NCBI RefSeq assembly: GCF_003334815.1
Contig: NZ_QOWO01000023.1
From: Escherichia coli
GTDB lineage: Bacteria > Pseudomonadota > Gammaproteobacteria > Enterobacterales > Enterobacteriaceae
Strand: one strand, 5' to 3'
DNA length: 64,000 bases
Made by a program: the position numbers and the translations under genes. This document shows positions 35,403-42,149 of the stretch, one piece after another. Below the pieces are notes generated by a model. That model made no database searches. It was not told where the DNA came from and saw only the letters and a program-made list of their open reading frames with translations. Numbering within the stretch: position 1 is the stretch's first letter; every line of letters begins with the position of its first letter.

Positions 35403-36494
35403 ATGGGATTCAAATGCGGTATCGTCGGTTTGCCCAACGTCGGGAAATCTACCCTGTTCAACGCGCTGACCAAAGCCGGTATTGAAGCGGCCAACTTTCC
35501 ATTCTGCACCATTGAGCCGAACACAGGCGTCGTACCAATGCCTGATCCTCGCCTGGATCAACTGGCTGAAATCGTAAAACCGCAGCGTACGCTTCCCACG
35601 ACCATGGAATTTGTCGATATCGCCGGTCTGGTAAAAGGCGCATCGAAAGGCGAAGGTCTGGGTAACCAGTTCCTGACCAACATCCGTGAAACCGAAGCGA
35701 TCGGTCACGTTGTTCGCTGCTTTGAAAATGACAACATCATTCACGTTTCCGGCAAAGTTAACCCGGCTGACGATATTGAAGTTATCAACACCGAACTGGC
35801 GCTGGCAGACCTCGACACCTGCGAACGTGCGATTCATCGCGTACAGAAGAAAGCCAAAGGTGGCGATAAAGACGCGAAAGCTGAGCTGGCGGTCCTGGAA
35901 AAATGCCTGCCCCAGTTGGAAAATGCAGGTATGCTGCGCGCGCTGGATTTAAGCGCTGAAGAGAAAGCGGCTATTCGTTACCTGAGCTTCCTGACGCTGA
36001 AACCAACAATGTACATCGCCAACGTCAACGAAGACGGTTTTGAAAACAACCCATATCTTGACCAGGTGCGTGAAATCGCGGCGAAAGAAGGTTCTGTTGT
36101 GGTTCCGGTTTGTGCTGCTGTTGAAGCAGACATTGCCGAACTGGACGACGAAGAACGTGACGAGTTTATGCAGGAGCTTGGGCTGGAAGAGCCGGGCCTG
36201 AACCGTGTGATCCGTGCCGGTTATAAACTGCTGAACCTGCAAACTTACTTCACCGCTGGGGTGAAAGAAGTGCGTGCATGGACCATTCCGGTTGGAGCAA
36301 CCGCGCCGCAGGCAGCGGGCAAAATCCATACTGATTTTGAAAAAGGCTTTATCCGTGCACAAACCATCTCGTTTGAAGATTTCATCACTTACAAAGGTGA
36401 ACAAGGCGCGAAAGAAGCAGGCAAAATGCGTGCAGAAGGTAAAGATTACATCGTGAAAGATGGCGATGTGATGAACTTCCTTTTCAACGTCTAA
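35403..36494 (+). CDS. ychF: ribosome-binding ATPase YchF (Obg-family GTPase)
   Basis: 363-aa ORF with P-loop GLPNVGKST; recognised YchF. Confidence 0.96.
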
Positions 36495-36553
36495 TTAATT
36501 TATTGTCTCATGAGGTTTCGCTAAATCTCATGAAGAGCGCAAAAGTATATAAA

Positions 36554-36577
36554 ATCCACGCAATTGCGTGGATTTTT
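36554..36577 (+). terminator. rho-independent terminator after ychF
   Basis: hairpin atccacgc-aatt-gcgtggat followed by T5. Confidence 0.7.
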
Positions 36578-37262
36578 CATTTCACCGAGTCCTAATCATT
36601 CTTGTAACATCCTACACTTTTGTGCTTATTGCCTATAGTGAACCACGAGAATAATTAAAGACATAAGTGTTCAGATGACGGATATCTCATTAGCAGTGAT
36701 ATAACGTAAGTTTTTGTATCACTACACATCAGCCCCCTTCACAGCTGATCAAAATTGATCACGCTCCAATATGCTGGCAAGATGAAAATGATAACCAGTA
36801 GCACAATAACAACGATAGGCCAGAAAACCCATTGACCAAAAATGAATATCGATGTTTTTTGCTTTTTCTTATTAGTAATGCAAAAATGGCGCATATTGTT
36901 TTTGTTATGCAGATACATCAAGCGAAATTCCCATAACTAATTAGGATTATTACAAAAAATCTTCACCAAATTTTTTAACCGCTGTTTGTTGTAATATTTT
37001 TGCCATATTTATAGTAACGAATTGGAATAAGTAACGACAACTTAGGGAATAACTCGATATAAACTCACCTTTGTAAGGGGGATGTTAAATATATATTAAT
37101 TCCTGTGTTCCTGATTTTGCCCGGTAATAGAGAATTATTCTCTGAGAAGCTCATCATGATTGCACCATACAAATATCATGATGATAAGAGGATATTATTC
37201 ATTGATTTAAACAAAATGACAAAATCCATAGACCCATAGTCTGGGTACTATATAGGAGTGGT

Positions 37263-40130
37263 ATGGGCATCAAACAACACAATGGGAATACCAAAGCAGA
37301 TCGTCTCGCTGAATTAAAAATCCGTTCGCCCTCAATTCAACTGATAAAATTTGGCGCTATTGGTTTGAATGCAATTATCTTTTCCCCCCTGCTGATAGCT
37401 GCTGATACAGGAAGTCAATATGGCACCAATATTACTATTAATGATGGTGACAGAATTACAGGAGATACCGCCGATCCATCAGGAAACCTCTATGGTGTAA
37501 TGACCCCAGCAGGAAACACGCCTGGCAATATCAACCTGGGTAATGATGTCACCGTCAATGTCAACGACGCCTCTGGATATGCAAAAGGAATCATTATTCA
37601 GGGCAAAAACAGCTCCCTGACAGCTAACCGACTCACAGTAGATGTTGTTGGTCAAACCTCTGCCATCGGCATTAACTTAATTGGTGACTATACCCATGCT
37701 GACTTAGGCACAGGCAGCACCATTAAGAGTAACGATGACGGCATCATTATTGGGCATAGCTCAACACTAACAGCCACTCAATTCACCATTGAAAACTCGA
37801 ACGGTATAGGCCTAACCATCAATGACTATGGCACCAGTGTCGATCTTGGAAGCGGAAGTAAAATCACGACCGATGGAAGTACAGGTGTTTATATCGGTGG
37901 TCTCAACGGCAATAACGCCAATGGTGCTGCGCGTTTTACGGCTACAGACCTGACAATCGATGTTCAGGGCTACAGCGCCATGGGGATAAACGTACAGAAA
38001 AACTCTGTTGTCGATCTCGGAACAAACAGTACCATTAAAACCAATGGCGATAATGCTCACGGCCTCTGGAGCTTTGGCCAGGTTAGCGCGAATGCACTCA
38101 CTGTTGATGTAACTGGAGCCGCGGCCAATGGCGTCGAAGTTCGTGGTGGTACAACCACTATCGGTGCAGATAGCCATATTTCTTCCGCGCAGGGCGGTGG
38201 CCTCGTCACCAGTGGTTCAGACGCGATAATCAATTTTACTGGCACGGCAGCGCAACGAAACAGCATCTTTTCCGGCGGTTCTTATGGTGCCTCGGCCCAG
38301 ACGGCAACGGCTGTTGTCAACATGCAAAATACCGATATTACAGTTGATCGTAATGGCAGTCTGGCGCTGGGTTTGTGGGCTCTCAGCGGCGGTAGAATAA
38401 CCGGAGACAGTTTGGCTATCACCGGCGCGGCAGGAGCCAGGGGAATTTATGCCATGACCAACAGCCAGATCGACCTCACGAGCGATCTGGTCATTGATAT
38501 GAGTACACCCGACCAGATGGCCATCGCAACGCAACATGACGATGGTTATGCCGCCAGCCGCATCAACGCCTCGGGTCGTATGCTTATCAACGGTAGCGTT
38601 CTTTCCAAAGGTGGGCTAATCAATCTGGATATGCACCCTGGGTCGGTTTGGACAGGTTCCTCCCTCAGCGATAATGTCAATGGCGGAAAACTGGACGTTG
38701 CAATGAATAACAGCGTCTGGAACGTAACAAGTAATTCTAATCTCGACACGCTGGCGCTGAGCCATTCAACTGTCGATTTTGCCAGCCACGGGTCAACTGC
38801 CGGCACATTTGCCACATTAAACGTAGAGAACCTGAGCGGTAACAGTACCTTTATTATGCGTGCTGATGTTGTTGGCGAGGGTAATGGCGTTAATAATAAA
38901 GGGGATTTATTGAATATCAGCGGGAGTAGTGCTGGTAATCACGTATTGGCTATCCGCAACCAGGGCAGCGAGGCCACAACGGGAAATGAAGTTCTGACAG
39001 TGGTAAAAACCACTGACGGCGCGGCCTCGTTCAGCGCGTCTTCTCAGGTTGAGTTGGGGGGATATCTGTACGATGTGCGTAAAAATGGCACTAACTGGGA
39101 GCTTTACGCTTCCGGGACAGTTCCGGAACCGACTCCTAATCCTGAACCCACACCAGCTCCCGCTCAGCCTCCCATAGTCAACCCCGATCCTACGCCTGAA
39201 CCCGCTCCCACGCCTAAACCCACCACGACCGCAGATGCTGGCGGCAATTATCTCAATGTCGGTTACTTATTGAACTATGTTGAAAACCGTACGCTGATGC
39301 AACGGATGGGTGACCTGCGAAATCAGAGTAAAGACGGTAATATCTGGTTGCGCAGTTATGGGGGAAGCCTGGACTCCTTTGCCAGTGGCAAACTGAGCGG
39401 CTTTGACATGGGTTACAGCGGTATCCAGTTTGGTGGGGATAAACGTCTCTCTGATGTAATGCCGTTGTATGTCGGTCTGTATATTGGCTCAACACATGCA
39501 TCGCCGGACTATAGCGGAGGCGACGGTACCGCACGTTCAGACTACATGGGAATGTACGCCAGTTACATGGCACAAAACGGTTTTTACAGCGATCTCGTTA
39601 TAAAAGCATCGCGCCAGAAAAATAGTTTCCACGTACTGGACAGTCAGAACAACGGCGTTAACGCCAACGGCACTGCGAATGGAATGAGCATCTCCCTGGA
39701 AGCCGGGCAGAGGTTCAACCTGTCCCCTACTGGTTATGGGTTCTATATAGAGCCGCAAACCCAGCTTACATACAGCCACCAGAATGAGATGACTATGAAG
39801 GCGAGTAATGGCCTCAATATACATCTGAATCACTACGAATCGCTGCTGGGGCGTGCCAGCATGATACTGGGGTATGACATCACCGCAGGCAACAGCCAGC
39901 TGAATGTCTATGTGAAGACTGGCGCTATCCGCGAGTTTTCAGGGGATACCGAATATCTGTTGAACAACTCCCGGGAGAAGTACAGTTTCAAAGGTAATGG
40001 CTGGAATAACGGCGTGGGAGTCAGTGCACAGTATAACAAACAGCACACATTCTATCTCGAAGCGGATTACACGCAGGGTAACCTCTTTGATCAGAAGCAA
40101 GTCAACGGAGGATATCGCTTCAGCTTTTAA
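37263..40130 (+). CDS. ycgV: autotransporter adhesin (type Va), passenger beta-helix + Pro-rich linker + C-terminal beta-barrel
   Basis: 955-aa ORF with repetitive G/T/N-rich passenger, PEPTPNPEPTPAPAQPP linker, C-terminal barrel ending in ...GGYRFSF; recognised YcgV. Confidence 0.9.
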   Translation: MGIKQHNGNTKADRLAELKIRSPSIQLIKFGAIGLNAIIFSPLLIAADTGSQYGTNITINDGDRITGDTADPSGNLYGVMTPAGNTPGNINLGNDVTVNVNDASGYAKGIIIQGKNSSLTANRLTVDVVGQTSAIGINLIGDYTHADLGTGSTIKSNDDGIIIGHSSTLTATQFTIENSNGIGLTINDYGTSVDLGSGSKITTDGSTGVYIGGLNGNNANGAARFTATDLTIDVQGYSAMGINVQKNSVVDLGTNSTIKTNGDNAHGLWSFGQVSANALTVDVTGAAANGVEVRGGTTTIGADSHISSAQGGGLVTSGSDAIINFTGTAAQRNSIFSGGSYGASAQTATAVVNMQNTDITVDRNGSLALGLWALSGGRITGDSLAITGAAGARGIYAMTNSQIDLTSDLVIDMSTPDQMAIATQHDDGYAASRINASGRMLINGSVLSKGGLINLDMHPGSVWTGSSLSDNVNGGKLDVAMNNSVWNVTSNSNLDTLALSHSTVDFASHGSTAGTFATLNVENLSGNSTFIMRADVVGEGNGVNNKGDLLNISGSSAGNHVLAIRNQGSEATTGNEVLTVVKTTDGAASFSASSQVELGGYLYDVRKNGTNWELYASGTVPEPTPNPEPTPAPAQPPIVNPDPTPEPAPTPKPTTTADAGGNYLNVGYLLNYVENRTLMQRMGDLRNQSKDGNIWLRSYGGSLDSFASGKLSGFDMGYSGIQFGGDKRLSDVMPLYVGLYIGSTHASPDYSGGDGTARSDYMGMYASYMAQNGFYSDLVIKASRQKNSFHVLDSQNNGVNANGTANGMSISLEAGQRFNLSPTGYGFYIEPQTQLTYSHQNEMTMKASNGLNIHLNHYESLLGRASMILGYDITAGNSQLNVYVKTGAIREFSGDTEYLLNNSREKYSFKGNGWNNGVGVSAQYNKQHTFYLEADYTQGNLFDQKQVNGGYRFSF

Positions 40131-40229
40131 GTGCGGGATAGACAAGCCCTTAAACGATGCTGAAAATTGTTAGCGTGCGCCGGAATGAAATACAGATCAC
40201 TCTGATGTATCAGAAATCGTTTCTGTCTT

Positions 40230-42149
40230 TCATACCCGGCGCTTAAACTGCCCTGCATCAATGCCATGTTGCTTCATTTTCCGCCACAGCGTAGTGCGGC
40301 CGATCCCAAGTAAAGCCGACATTTCCTGAATGCGACCGCCTGTGACCTGGGCTGCGTTAATAATTGCCTCTTTTTCAACTTCCGCAAATGACAGACTGGT
40401 GGAAAGGCGGGTGGCGCTGACATCATCTGTCGCCTGCTCGGTAAACAGATGTTCCGGCAAATCACTGACGCGAATGCGCCCGTTATCACTACTCAGAGCA
40501 AGATTCTCGATGACGCTGTAAAGTTCAAAATCGTTGCCTGGCCATGCACAAGAAACCAGGCGAGCGAGGGCATCGTCATCAATTTTCAGCCGCGTAGAGA
40601 AGCGTTTTTCAAGACTGCGTAATTTGTTATTCACCAGCGCCGGAATGCTGCCACGCCGCATACGCAGAGGCGGGATGGTAATTTCAAATGCATGCAGCGC
40701 GTAATACAGCTGGCGACTAAAACGATTTTGTTCCACCAGCATTGCGAGGTCCGCGGTCGTTGTTGCAATCACTTTGACATCAATTGGTATTAAACGCCGC
40801 GCATCCAGTCGCGTGATAACCCCCTGCTTGATAACCTGAAGCAAAGCAGACTGTAACTCCACCGCCAGATATTCAATCTTTTCAAGAAACAGCGTGCCGC
40901 CGTGTGCCAGTTCCAGCCGACTCAGACGGCCATTTTCATTGTCCGTGCGATCGCCACCAATAAATTCTTCCGCCAGCGCAGCATCACCATATAACTCACA
41001 ATTGACGGCGATATAAGGACCTGCAGCACGCTCGCTTTCATTATGAATTGCCTGACTTAGCAGTGCCTTGCCCACGCCCTCTTCTCCACAAAGCAGGACA
41101 GGAAAGCTACTGCGCGCCGCCTGGCGACCAAAATGAATCAAGCGGCGGGTTTGCGGATCGTCCTGTGGCATATGAGCGAAGGTATGGCTGACTTTTCCTA
41201 ATTGACTGGTCATCAACTGCCGCATCTGTTCCACAGGATGGAGCAACAAAATAAAGCTGGTTCCCTGCGTTTCTATTATCGGTTTAAGGGTTATCACCGC
41301 ATCAATAAACTGGTGCTGGCTTTCAAAGGTTGCTTCTACGTGTTTGAGCGGATGTGCCTGTTTTATTGCTTGTTGCAATACGGCGGGTAACGTTAAGAGT
41401 TCAGTGATTGCCCGTCCCTGACTTGCCGTCGCGTCAAGGCGCAAGACCCGCGCCGCCTGGGCATTAATAAATTGCAAATTACCCTGCTCGTCCCAGCTAA
41501 TCACGCCATCATCCATACTTTCTAACAGGGCATTAAGTTGATTTAAATGACGGTTAGTTTCAGCGAGCAAACTGTCCGTCAGCAGTAAATTTCCGACCTC
41601 GCGGGCGATTGCCAACGTCAACGGCAAATCAGCTGCGGTAGTTTGCTCAACCGGACACGCCAGCGCTATTGTTCCCGTCAATCGGCCCTTGCTGTCAAAC
41701 AACGGCGTTGCACAAAAGGCCCAGTTCCAGAGTACCTGTTTGAAATGTTGATCGGCCATCGTTTTCACGGCCTGACCAGAGATAGCCGCTAACGATAGCG
41801 CACAAGTACCAATAATTCCCTCGGCGCAATACGTGCCGTCATTGAATCCCAGTGCACTTAGCTGCTGCAAGGTTTGCGGATCGCCATTACGGCTGAGAAT
41901 GCAGGCGGTTTCATCGAGGATAAACAGCGCACACTCTCGCGGTGCCATATATTCCCAGGCATCTTCCAGCGCAGCCTGCCCGAGCGTCAGCATCGCTTTC
42001 TTACGCCGATAAATAGAAGCAAATGTCACGCCCTGGGCCTGATGTGGTACGTTCCATGTCTCCCGTTTCATCAGCTTATTGCATCGCTCCCAGGAGGTTG
42101 CAATTAAGGGAGATATGCCCCGACCATCGTTGTTAAAAGCGCCACTCAT
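40230..42149 (-). CDS. dhaR: dihydroxyacetone kinase operon transcriptional activator DhaR (GAF-PAS-AAA+ enhancer-binding-type)
   Basis: 639 aa from second ATG (MSGAFNNDGRG...); first ATG 3 codons upstream gives 642 aa; C-terminal HTH. Confidence 0.93.
   Translation of the reverse strand: MSGAFNNDGRGISPLIATSWERCNKLMKRETWNVPHQAQGVTFASIYRRKKAMLTLGQAALEDAWEYMAPRECALFILDETACILSRNGDPQTLQQLSALGFNDGTYCAEGIIGTCALSLAAISGQAVKTMADQHFKQVLWNWAFCATPLFDSKGRLTGTIALACPVEQTTAADLPLTLAIAREVGNLLLTDSLLAETNRHLNQLNALLESMDDGVISWDEQGNLQFINAQAARVLRLDATASQGRAITELLTLPAVLQQAIKQAHPLKHVEATFESQHQFIDAVITLKPIIETQGTSFILLLHPVEQMRQLMTSQLGKVSHTFAHMPQDDPQTRRLIHFGRQAARSSFPVLLCGEEGVGKALLSQAIHNESERAAGPYIAVNCELYGDAALAEEFIGGDRTDNENGRLSRLELAHGGTLFLEKIEYLAVELQSALLQVIKQGVITRLDARRLIPIDVKVIATTTADLAMLVEQNRFSRQLYYALHAFEITIPPLRMRRGSIPALVNNKLRSLEKRFSTRLKIDDDALARLVSCAWPGNDFELYSVIENLALSSDNGRIRVSDLPEHLFTEQATDDVSATRLSTSLSFAEVEKEAIINAAQVTGGRIQEMSALLGIGRTTLWRKMKQHGIDAGQFKRRV

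Follow-up and report, generated by a model that had tools for sequence, protein, structure and literature searches.

The segment at 36584..40236 of the window, the 64,000-nucleotide stretch of Escherichia coli DNA analysed here, corresponds with a probability of about 0.85 to the known accessory locus ycgV, in which a gene for a type Va autotransporter adhesin is preceded by an AT-rich upstream region that would serve as a platform for H-NS. The locus is already known, with the gene, its family, the phenotype, H-NS binding and a repressor all published. In the following, the binding of H-NS and of YbdO and the effect on adhesion are cited from the literature, and our own analysis contributes the identity, domain structure, composition, distribution and junctions of the locus.

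The open reading frame at 37263..40130 (+) encodes 955 residues, with an N-terminus exactly as given in the initial annotation, and its coding sequence is identical to that of ycgV/b1202 in MG1655, where it is annotated as 'putative autotransporter adhesin YcgV'. Between positions 36495 and 40230, the window differs from the MG1655 genome (NC_000913.3) at a single base, 36678, which is located upstream of the gene and, unlike its MG1655 counterpart, represents the allele common in other strains; over 9.5 kb, there are two differences. Judged at the sequence level, the source of the window is near K-12 but not MG1655 itself. The neighbouring genes, ychF upstream and the convergently oriented dhaR downstream, are the same as in K-12, and a search of the ycgV-dhaR interval revealed no intrinsic terminator. 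A Shine-Dalgarno sequence (AGGAG; 37254..37258, +) is found 4 nt 5' of the ATG. Since an in-frame TAG stop codon lies nine codons further 5' of this ATG and a reading of the sequence reveals no other ATG, GTG or TTG ahead of the hydrophobic core, position 37263 is the only plausible start. The overall GC content of the coding sequence is normal (49.8%), so that its composition gives no clear sign of recent acquisition from a foreign source; ycgV has been called foreign by one of three predictors (PMC3661553). The AT-rich character of the upstream DNA continues into the coding sequence, whose first ~600 bp have a GC3 of 0.37-0.45.

Based on its domains, YcgV is a classical type Va autotransporter that combines a pertactin-type passenger end with a β-barrel. 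Its name, its length and this architecture had been assigned correctly at the outset, as borne out by the identity with MG1655 and by matches in Pfam, NCBIfam and the PDB. The repetitive, β-helical passenger predicted at the same time is supported by units of ~50 residues starting at residues 119, 169, 225 and 274 (self-BLAST E-values of 1e-8, 1.6e-4 and 8e-4), by a Pertactin domain (PF03212; residues 494-615, 38742..39107, +; E = 1.4e-37) at the C-terminal end of the passenger, which represents the autochaperone region, and by matches to the PDB chains of pertactin (1dab, 2iou) and Vag8 (7akv). For the N-terminal part of the passenger (residues 48-480), the PDB search returned no solved relative. 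The Pro-rich linker is present at residues 619-655 (PEPTPNPEPTPAP...; 39117..39227, +) and differs in length among strains, as seen in proteins of 955 versus 961 residues. The C-terminal barrel, finally, is represented by the autotransporter beta-domain PF03797 (residues 694-935, 39342..40067, +; E = 1.6e-37), by the NCBIfam family TIGR01414 (residues 513-955; E = 2e-107, 360 bits versus a cut-off of 16) and by matches to the chains of BrkA (3qq2) and the EspP barrels.

The steps of export and assembly can be taken over from established type Va biology. By this analogy, the C-terminal barrel (residues ~694-955) would insert into the outer membrane and the passenger would be threaded outward, aided by its pertactin-type autochaperone end. 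The Pro-rich spacer may then keep the β-helical passenger off the cell surface, where it could mediate adhesion and biofilm formation. An effect of this kind, which the initial annotation had proposed to look for, has already been published, as induced YcgV promotes adhesion and biofilm formation according to Roux et al. (2005) as cited in later work. YcgV is also reported to be cryptic in K-12, and its barrel serves as a display scaffold if supplied with an exogenous signal peptide (PMC13101318).

A long but otherwise ordinary Sec signal of ~47 residues is likely to bring YcgV to the periplasm. This putative signal, which comprises codons 1-47 (37263..37403, +), was delineated by its n-region, h-region and cleavage-site pattern and by comparison with homologues. 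It consists of a basic n-region of 29 residues (six K/R, two D/E), an h-region of 18 residues (FGAIGLNAIIFSPLLIAA; mean Kyte-Doolittle value of 1.97) and an I-A-A sequence of the A-x-A type, located directly ahead of a mature start (xGSQxG..NDGD) that is conserved in homologues with 46-68% identity. Cleavage likely occurs after this I-A-A sequence, at codon 47. Among the homologues, the n-region ranges in length from roughly 5 to 28 residues and has no common motif, and ESPR (PF13018) is absent from the Pfam matches to YcgV listed up to E = 10. The earlier description of an extended signal peptide thus holds for its length (47 residues) but not for a conserved ESPR motif. A SignalP 6.0 probability of 0.47 is given for YcgV in a 2026 paper, whose authors label the protein 'leaderless' (PMC13101318). 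The comparison of homologues speaks for a genuine signal peptide whose n-region is long and variable, a result that bears on the treatment of YcgV in that report.

Genome comparison indicates that the AT-rich upstream region, ycgV and a 3' tail together form a single accessory block (36584..40236, +) with base-precise junctions at 36583/36584 and 40236/40237. The locus is missing from the B2/ST131 lineage, again with sharp junctions: homology to ST131 stops at 36583, and the same two junctions enclose a 26-kb integrase/retron/ABC-3C island instead, so that the site houses a defence island in these strains. Among 5426 complete E. coli genomes, the whole block is present in 3931 and the upstream region in 4097 at a coverage of at least 80% (about 72-76%). 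Given this variable presence and its defined junctions, ycgV is an accessory locus. Alignment to other E. coli additionally reveals a 75-bp deletion in K-12-type strains, whose junction (CTGGC) lies at 36774..36778; about half of the sampled genomes retain the 75 bp, with CTGGC direct repeats on both sides. These two common length variants of the upstream region matter when ycgV regulation is compared between K-12 and O157/B1-type strains.

The true intergenic spacer between ychF and ycgV spans 768 bp (36495..37262). Its first ~89 bp (36495..36583), which are conserved even in genomes without ycgV, contain the ychF terminator (36551..36576, +), a perfect 13+13 hairpin (z = -3.2) that constitutes the last sequence in common with these genomes. 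Since A/T runs flank it on both sides, this terminator could act bidirectionally. An Rfam search of 36400..37400 in E-value mode yielded only sub-threshold matches; the candidate Leu_leader was rejected, with 31-33 bits compared to a gathering score of 50 and matches falling on the terminator hairpin. Upstream of ycgV, there are no direct repeats and, the terminator excepted, only weak inverted repeats.

The remainder of the spacer, the upstream region proper (36584..37262, +; about 34% GC), is the lowest-GC zone of the window. The GC content of 36578..37262 is 33.7%, compared to a window average of 50.5% and a value of 49.8% in the coding sequence, and only 0.13% of all 685-bp stretches in the window are equally low, with the minimum beginning at 36541. 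TpA steps are more abundant in the spacer (73 versus a mean of 35) than in any other 765-bp stretch of the window, and its count of A/T tracts of at least four bases falls within the top 1%. The initial annotation had described this region as a 700-bp AT-rich leader; its AT-richness is thus confirmed, but as a leader, a term that implies a transcribed 5' untranslated region, it remains putative.

The H-NS binding originally proposed on the basis of AT-richness agrees with published occupancy. The ycgV/ychF spacer is one of 78 'promoter islands' (Table 1, PMC3661553), and its entry 'A' in the H-NS column denotes binding in each of the ChIP studies under comparison (Grainger, Oshima, Kahramanoglou). 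The island itself (1255333_301 in U00096.2; 301 bp) maps to 36805..37105 of the window, a conversion accurate to about 1 bp, with the offset verified against a sigma-54 site. RNA polymerase-sigma32 is reported to bind the spacer in vitro. Promoter islands are defined by a very high density of start points predicted with PlatProm over at least 300 bp. Our scans relied on simple matching to the -35/-10 consensus of sigma-70; neither the strict scan (one site versus 4.9 expected) nor the relaxed one (three sites per 300 bp, a level reached by 27% of windows) showed any enrichment. The high-affinity 10-bp motif of H-NS (TCGATAAATT), with up to two mismatches allowed, matched once in the spacer, which equals the background. 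The ~680-bp stretch of 34% GC most likely offers H-NS a platform on which to nucleate and spread, and this coverage would hold ycgV silent under laboratory conditions; YbdO is reported to contribute a specific repression in the 126 bp next to the ATG. We infer that H-NS binding is the cause of ycgV silencing; a search of the literature retrieved no report of ycgV derepression in an hns mutant.

Alternatively, the AT-rich stretch may, beyond a regulatory role, hold an unannotated antisense unit, composed of a promoter-like site (37222->37194), an open reading frame for a small membrane protein (36921->36739) and the bidirectional hairpin (36576->36551), whose product or transcription matters, for instance by interfering with ycgV. 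We consider this reading unlikely. The best sigma-70 match of the region does lie on the minus strand (TTGTCA-17-AATAAT, 10 of 12 positions), and so does a T run at the hairpin. The reading frame in between (36739..36921, -), which begins with MYLHNKNN... and encodes a hydrophobic peptide of 60 residues here and of 68 or 85 residues elsewhere, is open in all eight lineages examined and has been termed a 'membrane protein' by some gene callers; the 75-bp indel is in frame, leaving the K-12 version with the same C-terminus as the 85-residue form. However, non-synonymous changes account for 17 of the 22 substitutions, in line with the 80% expected under neutrality (omega <= 0.2 rejected, P = 0.002), and a premature stop shortens the peptide to 68 residues in one major lineage, with many frameshifted C-termini found as well. 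Moreover, homologues are restricted to Escherichia and Shigella, no Pfam or NCBIfam family is matched, the Shine-Dalgarno sequence is weak, and PGAP leaves the frame unannotated in all sampled genomes. Hydrophobic reading frames also arise by chance on the T-rich strands of AT-rich DNA. The antisense frame was therefore not adopted as the main reading and is probably not a functional gene. It is similarly doubtful that the upstream region does more than serve H-NS passively and carries an Escherichia-specific antisense unit; in that case, the 75-bp in-frame indel, which divides E. coli about equally, could alter the product of this unit, or the strength of ycgV silencing, between lineages.

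Control of ycgV could also depend mainly on a specific operator, with YbdO or some other dimeric regulator occupying the palindrome at 37129..37143, and not on coating by H-NS, although this appears highly unlikely. The palindrome (AGAGAATTATTCTCT; AGAGAAT-T-ATTCTCT, 7-1-7), located 120-134 bp 5' of the ATG, had been pointed out initially and is indeed present and perfect, but it does not exceed chance expectation: at least one perfect palindrome with 7-bp stems occurs in 33% of Markov shuffles of the AT-rich stretch, and at least two, as observed, in 11%. Its last base is changed from T to A, rendering it imperfect, in six of the seven further E. coli upstream regions of the alignment. In an avian pathogenic strain, YbdO reportedly represses ycgV 3-4 fold, and it is also reported to shift an upstream probe in EMSAs. 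This 126-bp probe (37137..37262, +), the only one tested for protein binding here, covers the sequence next to the ATG and begins inside the palindrome, but it includes only the right half-site, and the shift required 2-8 uM YbdO. H-NS occupancy, by contrast, has been reported independently.

Phase variation of ycgV by Dam methylation, as in its relative agn43, is most improbable: although the only two GATC sites of the spacer (36747 and 36757) lie 10 bp apart within a perfect palindrome (TGATCAAAATTGATCA; 36746..36761) and one study includes ycgV among the genes with differentially methylated GATC sites, the pair is ~500 bp upstream of the ATG, its second member is missing in O157-like sequences (L004, L008), the upstream region shows no recognizable OxyR or Lrp site, and it has neither the three promoter GATC sites of agn43 nor a cluster of conserved GATC sites that overlaps a regulator site at the promoter.

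In comparison with known systems, the closest counterpart of the H-NS-bound adhesin locus described here is ycgV of K-12 (b1202), whose coding sequence, neighbours and upstream region are the same except for base 36678, so that nothing substantial differs. Of the proteins with a solved structure, those matching best in sequence are Bordetella Vag8 (7akv), BrkA (3qq2) and pertactin (1dab), with E-values of 6e-25, 1e-23 and 5e-11, respectively. This likeness spans the 12-strand barrel and the pertactin-type end of the passenger, but the relationship is distant, and host and biology are different. With the H-NS-silenced surface loci of K-12, such as the cryptic chaperone-usher fimbriae, ecp and the fim regulatory region, ycgV shares an AT-rich stretch upstream, published evidence of H-NS occupancy, cryptic behaviour under laboratory conditions and the capacity to be activated by mutation or induction. 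In ycgV, however, AT-richness is confined to the upstream region and the 5' part of the gene, and silencing by H-NS is deduced from reports of occupancy. Compared to YfaL and YpjA, which are cryptic in K-12, and to Ag43, AIDA-I and TibA, YcgV is distinguished by its ~50-residue repeats and long Pro-rich spacer and lacks an ESPR-type signal. Moreover, Ag43, AIDA-I and TibA, classified as Group 4 in PMC9289746, are self-associating, a property that would be hypothetical for YcgV, which also lacks an agn43-type Dam/OxyR switch. All these proteins are type Va autotransporters with a β-helical passenger and a reported role in adhesion or biofilm formation upon induction, and the spacer upstream of yfaL is likewise an H-NS-bound promoter island (PMC3661553).

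The ORF at 37263..40130 (+), the sole long one in the ORF listing, encodes 955 residues and starts with the N-terminus initially quoted for it. It lies downstream of pth and ychF, which share its strand, and converges with dhaR, beyond which dhaK follows. The segment 34000..43500 differs from the reverse complement of MG1655 1248000-1260000 at 2 of 9501 bases, and 36495..40230 at position 36678 only, where the window has an A and MG1655 a C. Given this near-complete match, with the sole difference in the latter interval lying upstream of the gene, the ORF is ycgV (b1202), an already known locus whose product is annotated in MG1655 as 'putative autotransporter adhesin YcgV'. The A at 36678 is common to the other aligned strains and BL21/C43, and the window therefore represents a near-K-12 sequence rather than MG1655 itself.

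The interpretation of ycgV as an autotransporter adhesin gene behind an AT-rich region typical of H-NS-silenced genes is supported, with corrections concerning the palindrome, the signal peptide and the term 'leader'. The marked AT-richness was confirmed by comparison with the window average, since 36578..37262 has a GC content of 33.7%, whereas the window averages 50.5% and the ycgV coding sequence 49.8%. Equally low values occur in only 0.13% of 685-bp windows, the minimum beginning at 36541. The ychF-ycgV spacer contains 73 TpA steps (mean, 35), the highest number of all 765-bp stretches in the window, and ranks in the top 1% for A/T tracts; the first ~600 bp of ycgV are still AT-rich (GC3 0.37-0.45). 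This spacer is among 78 'promoter islands' (entry 1255333_301, U00096.2), is listed as bound by H-NS in all ChIP studies compared (column entry 'A') and lies at a locus flagged as foreign by one of three predictors (Panyukov and Ozoline, PMC3661553). According to the same group, such islands bind RNA polymerase while little RNA is made. Using an offset verified with a sigma-54 site, we map the island to about 36805..37105. Simple sigma-70 scans did not reproduce its high site density, the 10-bp high-affinity H-NS motif is not enriched in the spacer, and our literature search found no study that directly measured ycgV in an hns mutant. A sigma-32 holoenzyme site in the spacer is recorded in a genomic SELEX study. 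For an avian pathogenic strain, 3-4 fold repression of ycgV by YbdO has been reported, as has the shift of a 126-bp probe (primers at 37137..37262) by this protein. According to reviews that cite Roux et al. 2005, YcgV, YfaL and YpjA favour initial adhesion and biofilm formation; moreover, delta-fim populations that gained biofilm capacity during experimental evolution carried, among others, mutations affecting ycgV. Given this published evidence on H-NS binding, adhesion and biofilm formation, most of the checks proposed with the initial annotation had already been performed by others, with the predicted outcome. In the chicken isolate YZMc17-1 (L010:765-1527), an IS1 element is inserted ~220 bp 5' of the ycgV ATG, at 37038..37047 and thus inside the island, which may represent a natural activating or disrupting event.

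The palindrome noted near 37128 is real (AGAGAATTATTCTCT, 37129..37143), but its significance does not exceed chance: 33% of shuffled sequences contained perfect palindromes with 7-bp stems and 11% reached the observed count of two or more, and its last base is altered in six of the seven other aligned lineages. A second perfect palindrome (TGATCAAAATTGATCA, 36746..36761) contains the spacer's only two GATC (Dam) sites, the latter of which is missing in the O157-like loci L004 and L008. An Rfam scan of the upstream region returned no match above threshold. While the AT-rich stretch itself stands, its description as a 'leader' needs to be corrected. A 44-codon GTG-start ORF (37105..37239, +; 27 aa from an internal ATG) covers the 37129..37143 palindrome, stops 24 nt 5' of the ycgV ATG, shows little variation and could be an upstream ORF.

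Among the complete E. coli genomes sampled, roughly half carry 75 additional bases, bounded by CTGGC direct repeats, between CCAATATG and CTGGCAAGATG (L003:1780-1854), whereas K-12-type strains have the deleted form (junction 36774..36778). The indel falls within an antisense hydrophobic ORF (MYLHNKNNMRHFCITNKKKQKTSIFIFGQWVFWPIVVIVLLVIIFILP...; 36739..36921, -), which is open in all eight E. coli lineages examined and comprises 60 aa in K-12, 68 aa with an intervening stop, or 85 aa in two strains of greater divergence; being in frame, the deletion leaves the C-terminus of the ORF unchanged. With a minus-strand promoter-like site ahead of it (37222->37194, 10/12) and the bidirectional ychF hairpin (36551..36576) beyond it, this ORF looks like a small antisense unit. 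However, its homologues are confined to Escherichia and Shigella and fall into no family, truncations or frameshifts affect many variants, and PGAP annotates nothing there. In addition, 17 of 22 substitutions are non-synonymous, matching the neutral expectation (80%), and omega <= 0.2 is rejected (P = 0.002). On these grounds, a functional antisense gene is unlikely; the ORF is most likely a chance hydrophobic ORF of the T-rich strand.

In the ST131 strain 751, homology to the window ends at 36583, just past the ychF terminator hairpin, and restarts at 40237, at the end of dhaR. The AT-rich region and ycgV thus behave as one accessory block (36584..40236), whose left junction nearly coincides with the start initially assigned to the upstream region (36578). 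Its place is taken by a 26-kb island (L011:1220-27597) carrying a tyrosine integrase, IS elements, a retron Ec67-family reverse transcriptase/endonuclease, an ABC-three-component system and DUF2339 and DUF3999 genes, and the gap between ychF and dhaR looks like a hot spot for integration. At a coverage of at least 80%, the 3.7-kb query comprising the upstream region and ycgV is present in 3931 of 5426 complete E. coli genomes, and the upstream region alone in 4097; a phylogenomic study reported loss of ycgV across the whole F/G/B2 lineage. The gene is also often decayed (L004:3844-5594, L008 and L009). Strain NCCP 13924 (L004) has an annotated partial gene of 543 codons that lacks the C-terminus and adjoins dhaK, dhaR being absent; PNUSAE019785 has a partial copy and 6EVA a frameshifted one.

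An in-frame TAG nine codons upstream, an AGGAG at 37254..37258 and the lack of any other ATG, GTG or TTG before the hydrophobic core leave the ATG at 37263 as the only plausible start of ycgV. Residues 1-29 are basic (6 K/R, 2 D/E), and residues 30-47 (FGAIGLNAIIFSPLLIAA), which terminate in I-A-A, average 1.97 on the Kyte-Doolittle scale. When 1.84 billion cluster representatives were searched, 368 proteins matched at E <= 1e-30, several of them full-length with 46-68% identity. Among ten aligned N-termini, conservation begins exactly past the hydrophobic segment (xGSQxG..NDGD, YcgV residues 49-63), the n-regions range from ~5 to ~28 residues without a shared motif, and Pfam returned no ESPR match for YcgV even at E = 10. 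These features suggest a long Sec-type signal whose n-region varies by lineage, so that the suggested extended signal peptide holds with respect to length but not as a conserved ESPR. The comparison also argues against the view of YcgV as leaderless, adopted in a 2026 paper at a SignalP 6.0 probability of 0.47 (PMC13101318).

The predicted type Va architecture proved correct. A passenger with ~50-aa units starting at residues 119, 169, 225 and 274, each opened by an L/F-T-A-x-x-L-T-V/I-D motif (self-BLAST E 1e-8 to 8e-4), and a Pertactin domain (aa 494-615, Pfam E 1.4e-37) are followed by a Pro-rich spacer (PEPTPNPEPTPAP..., aa 619-655, 39117..39227) with weak Pfam proline-repeat matches and an Autotransporter beta-domain (aa 694-935, E 1.6e-37); NCBIfam TIGR01414 matches aa 513-955 (E 2e-107). 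Strains differ in the length of the Pro-rich spacer, which reads ...PEPAPTPKP... in the 955-aa protein and ...PEPDPTPNPTPTPKP... in a 961-aa form (L003). Within the gene, TTGGCTCAACACATGCA (39484..39500, +, sense orientation) has been listed as the intragenic sigma-54 binding site IS15 (PMC4591121). The solved chains closest to YcgV are Bordetella Vag8 (7akv), the BrkA barrel (3qq2), the EspP barrels and pertactin.
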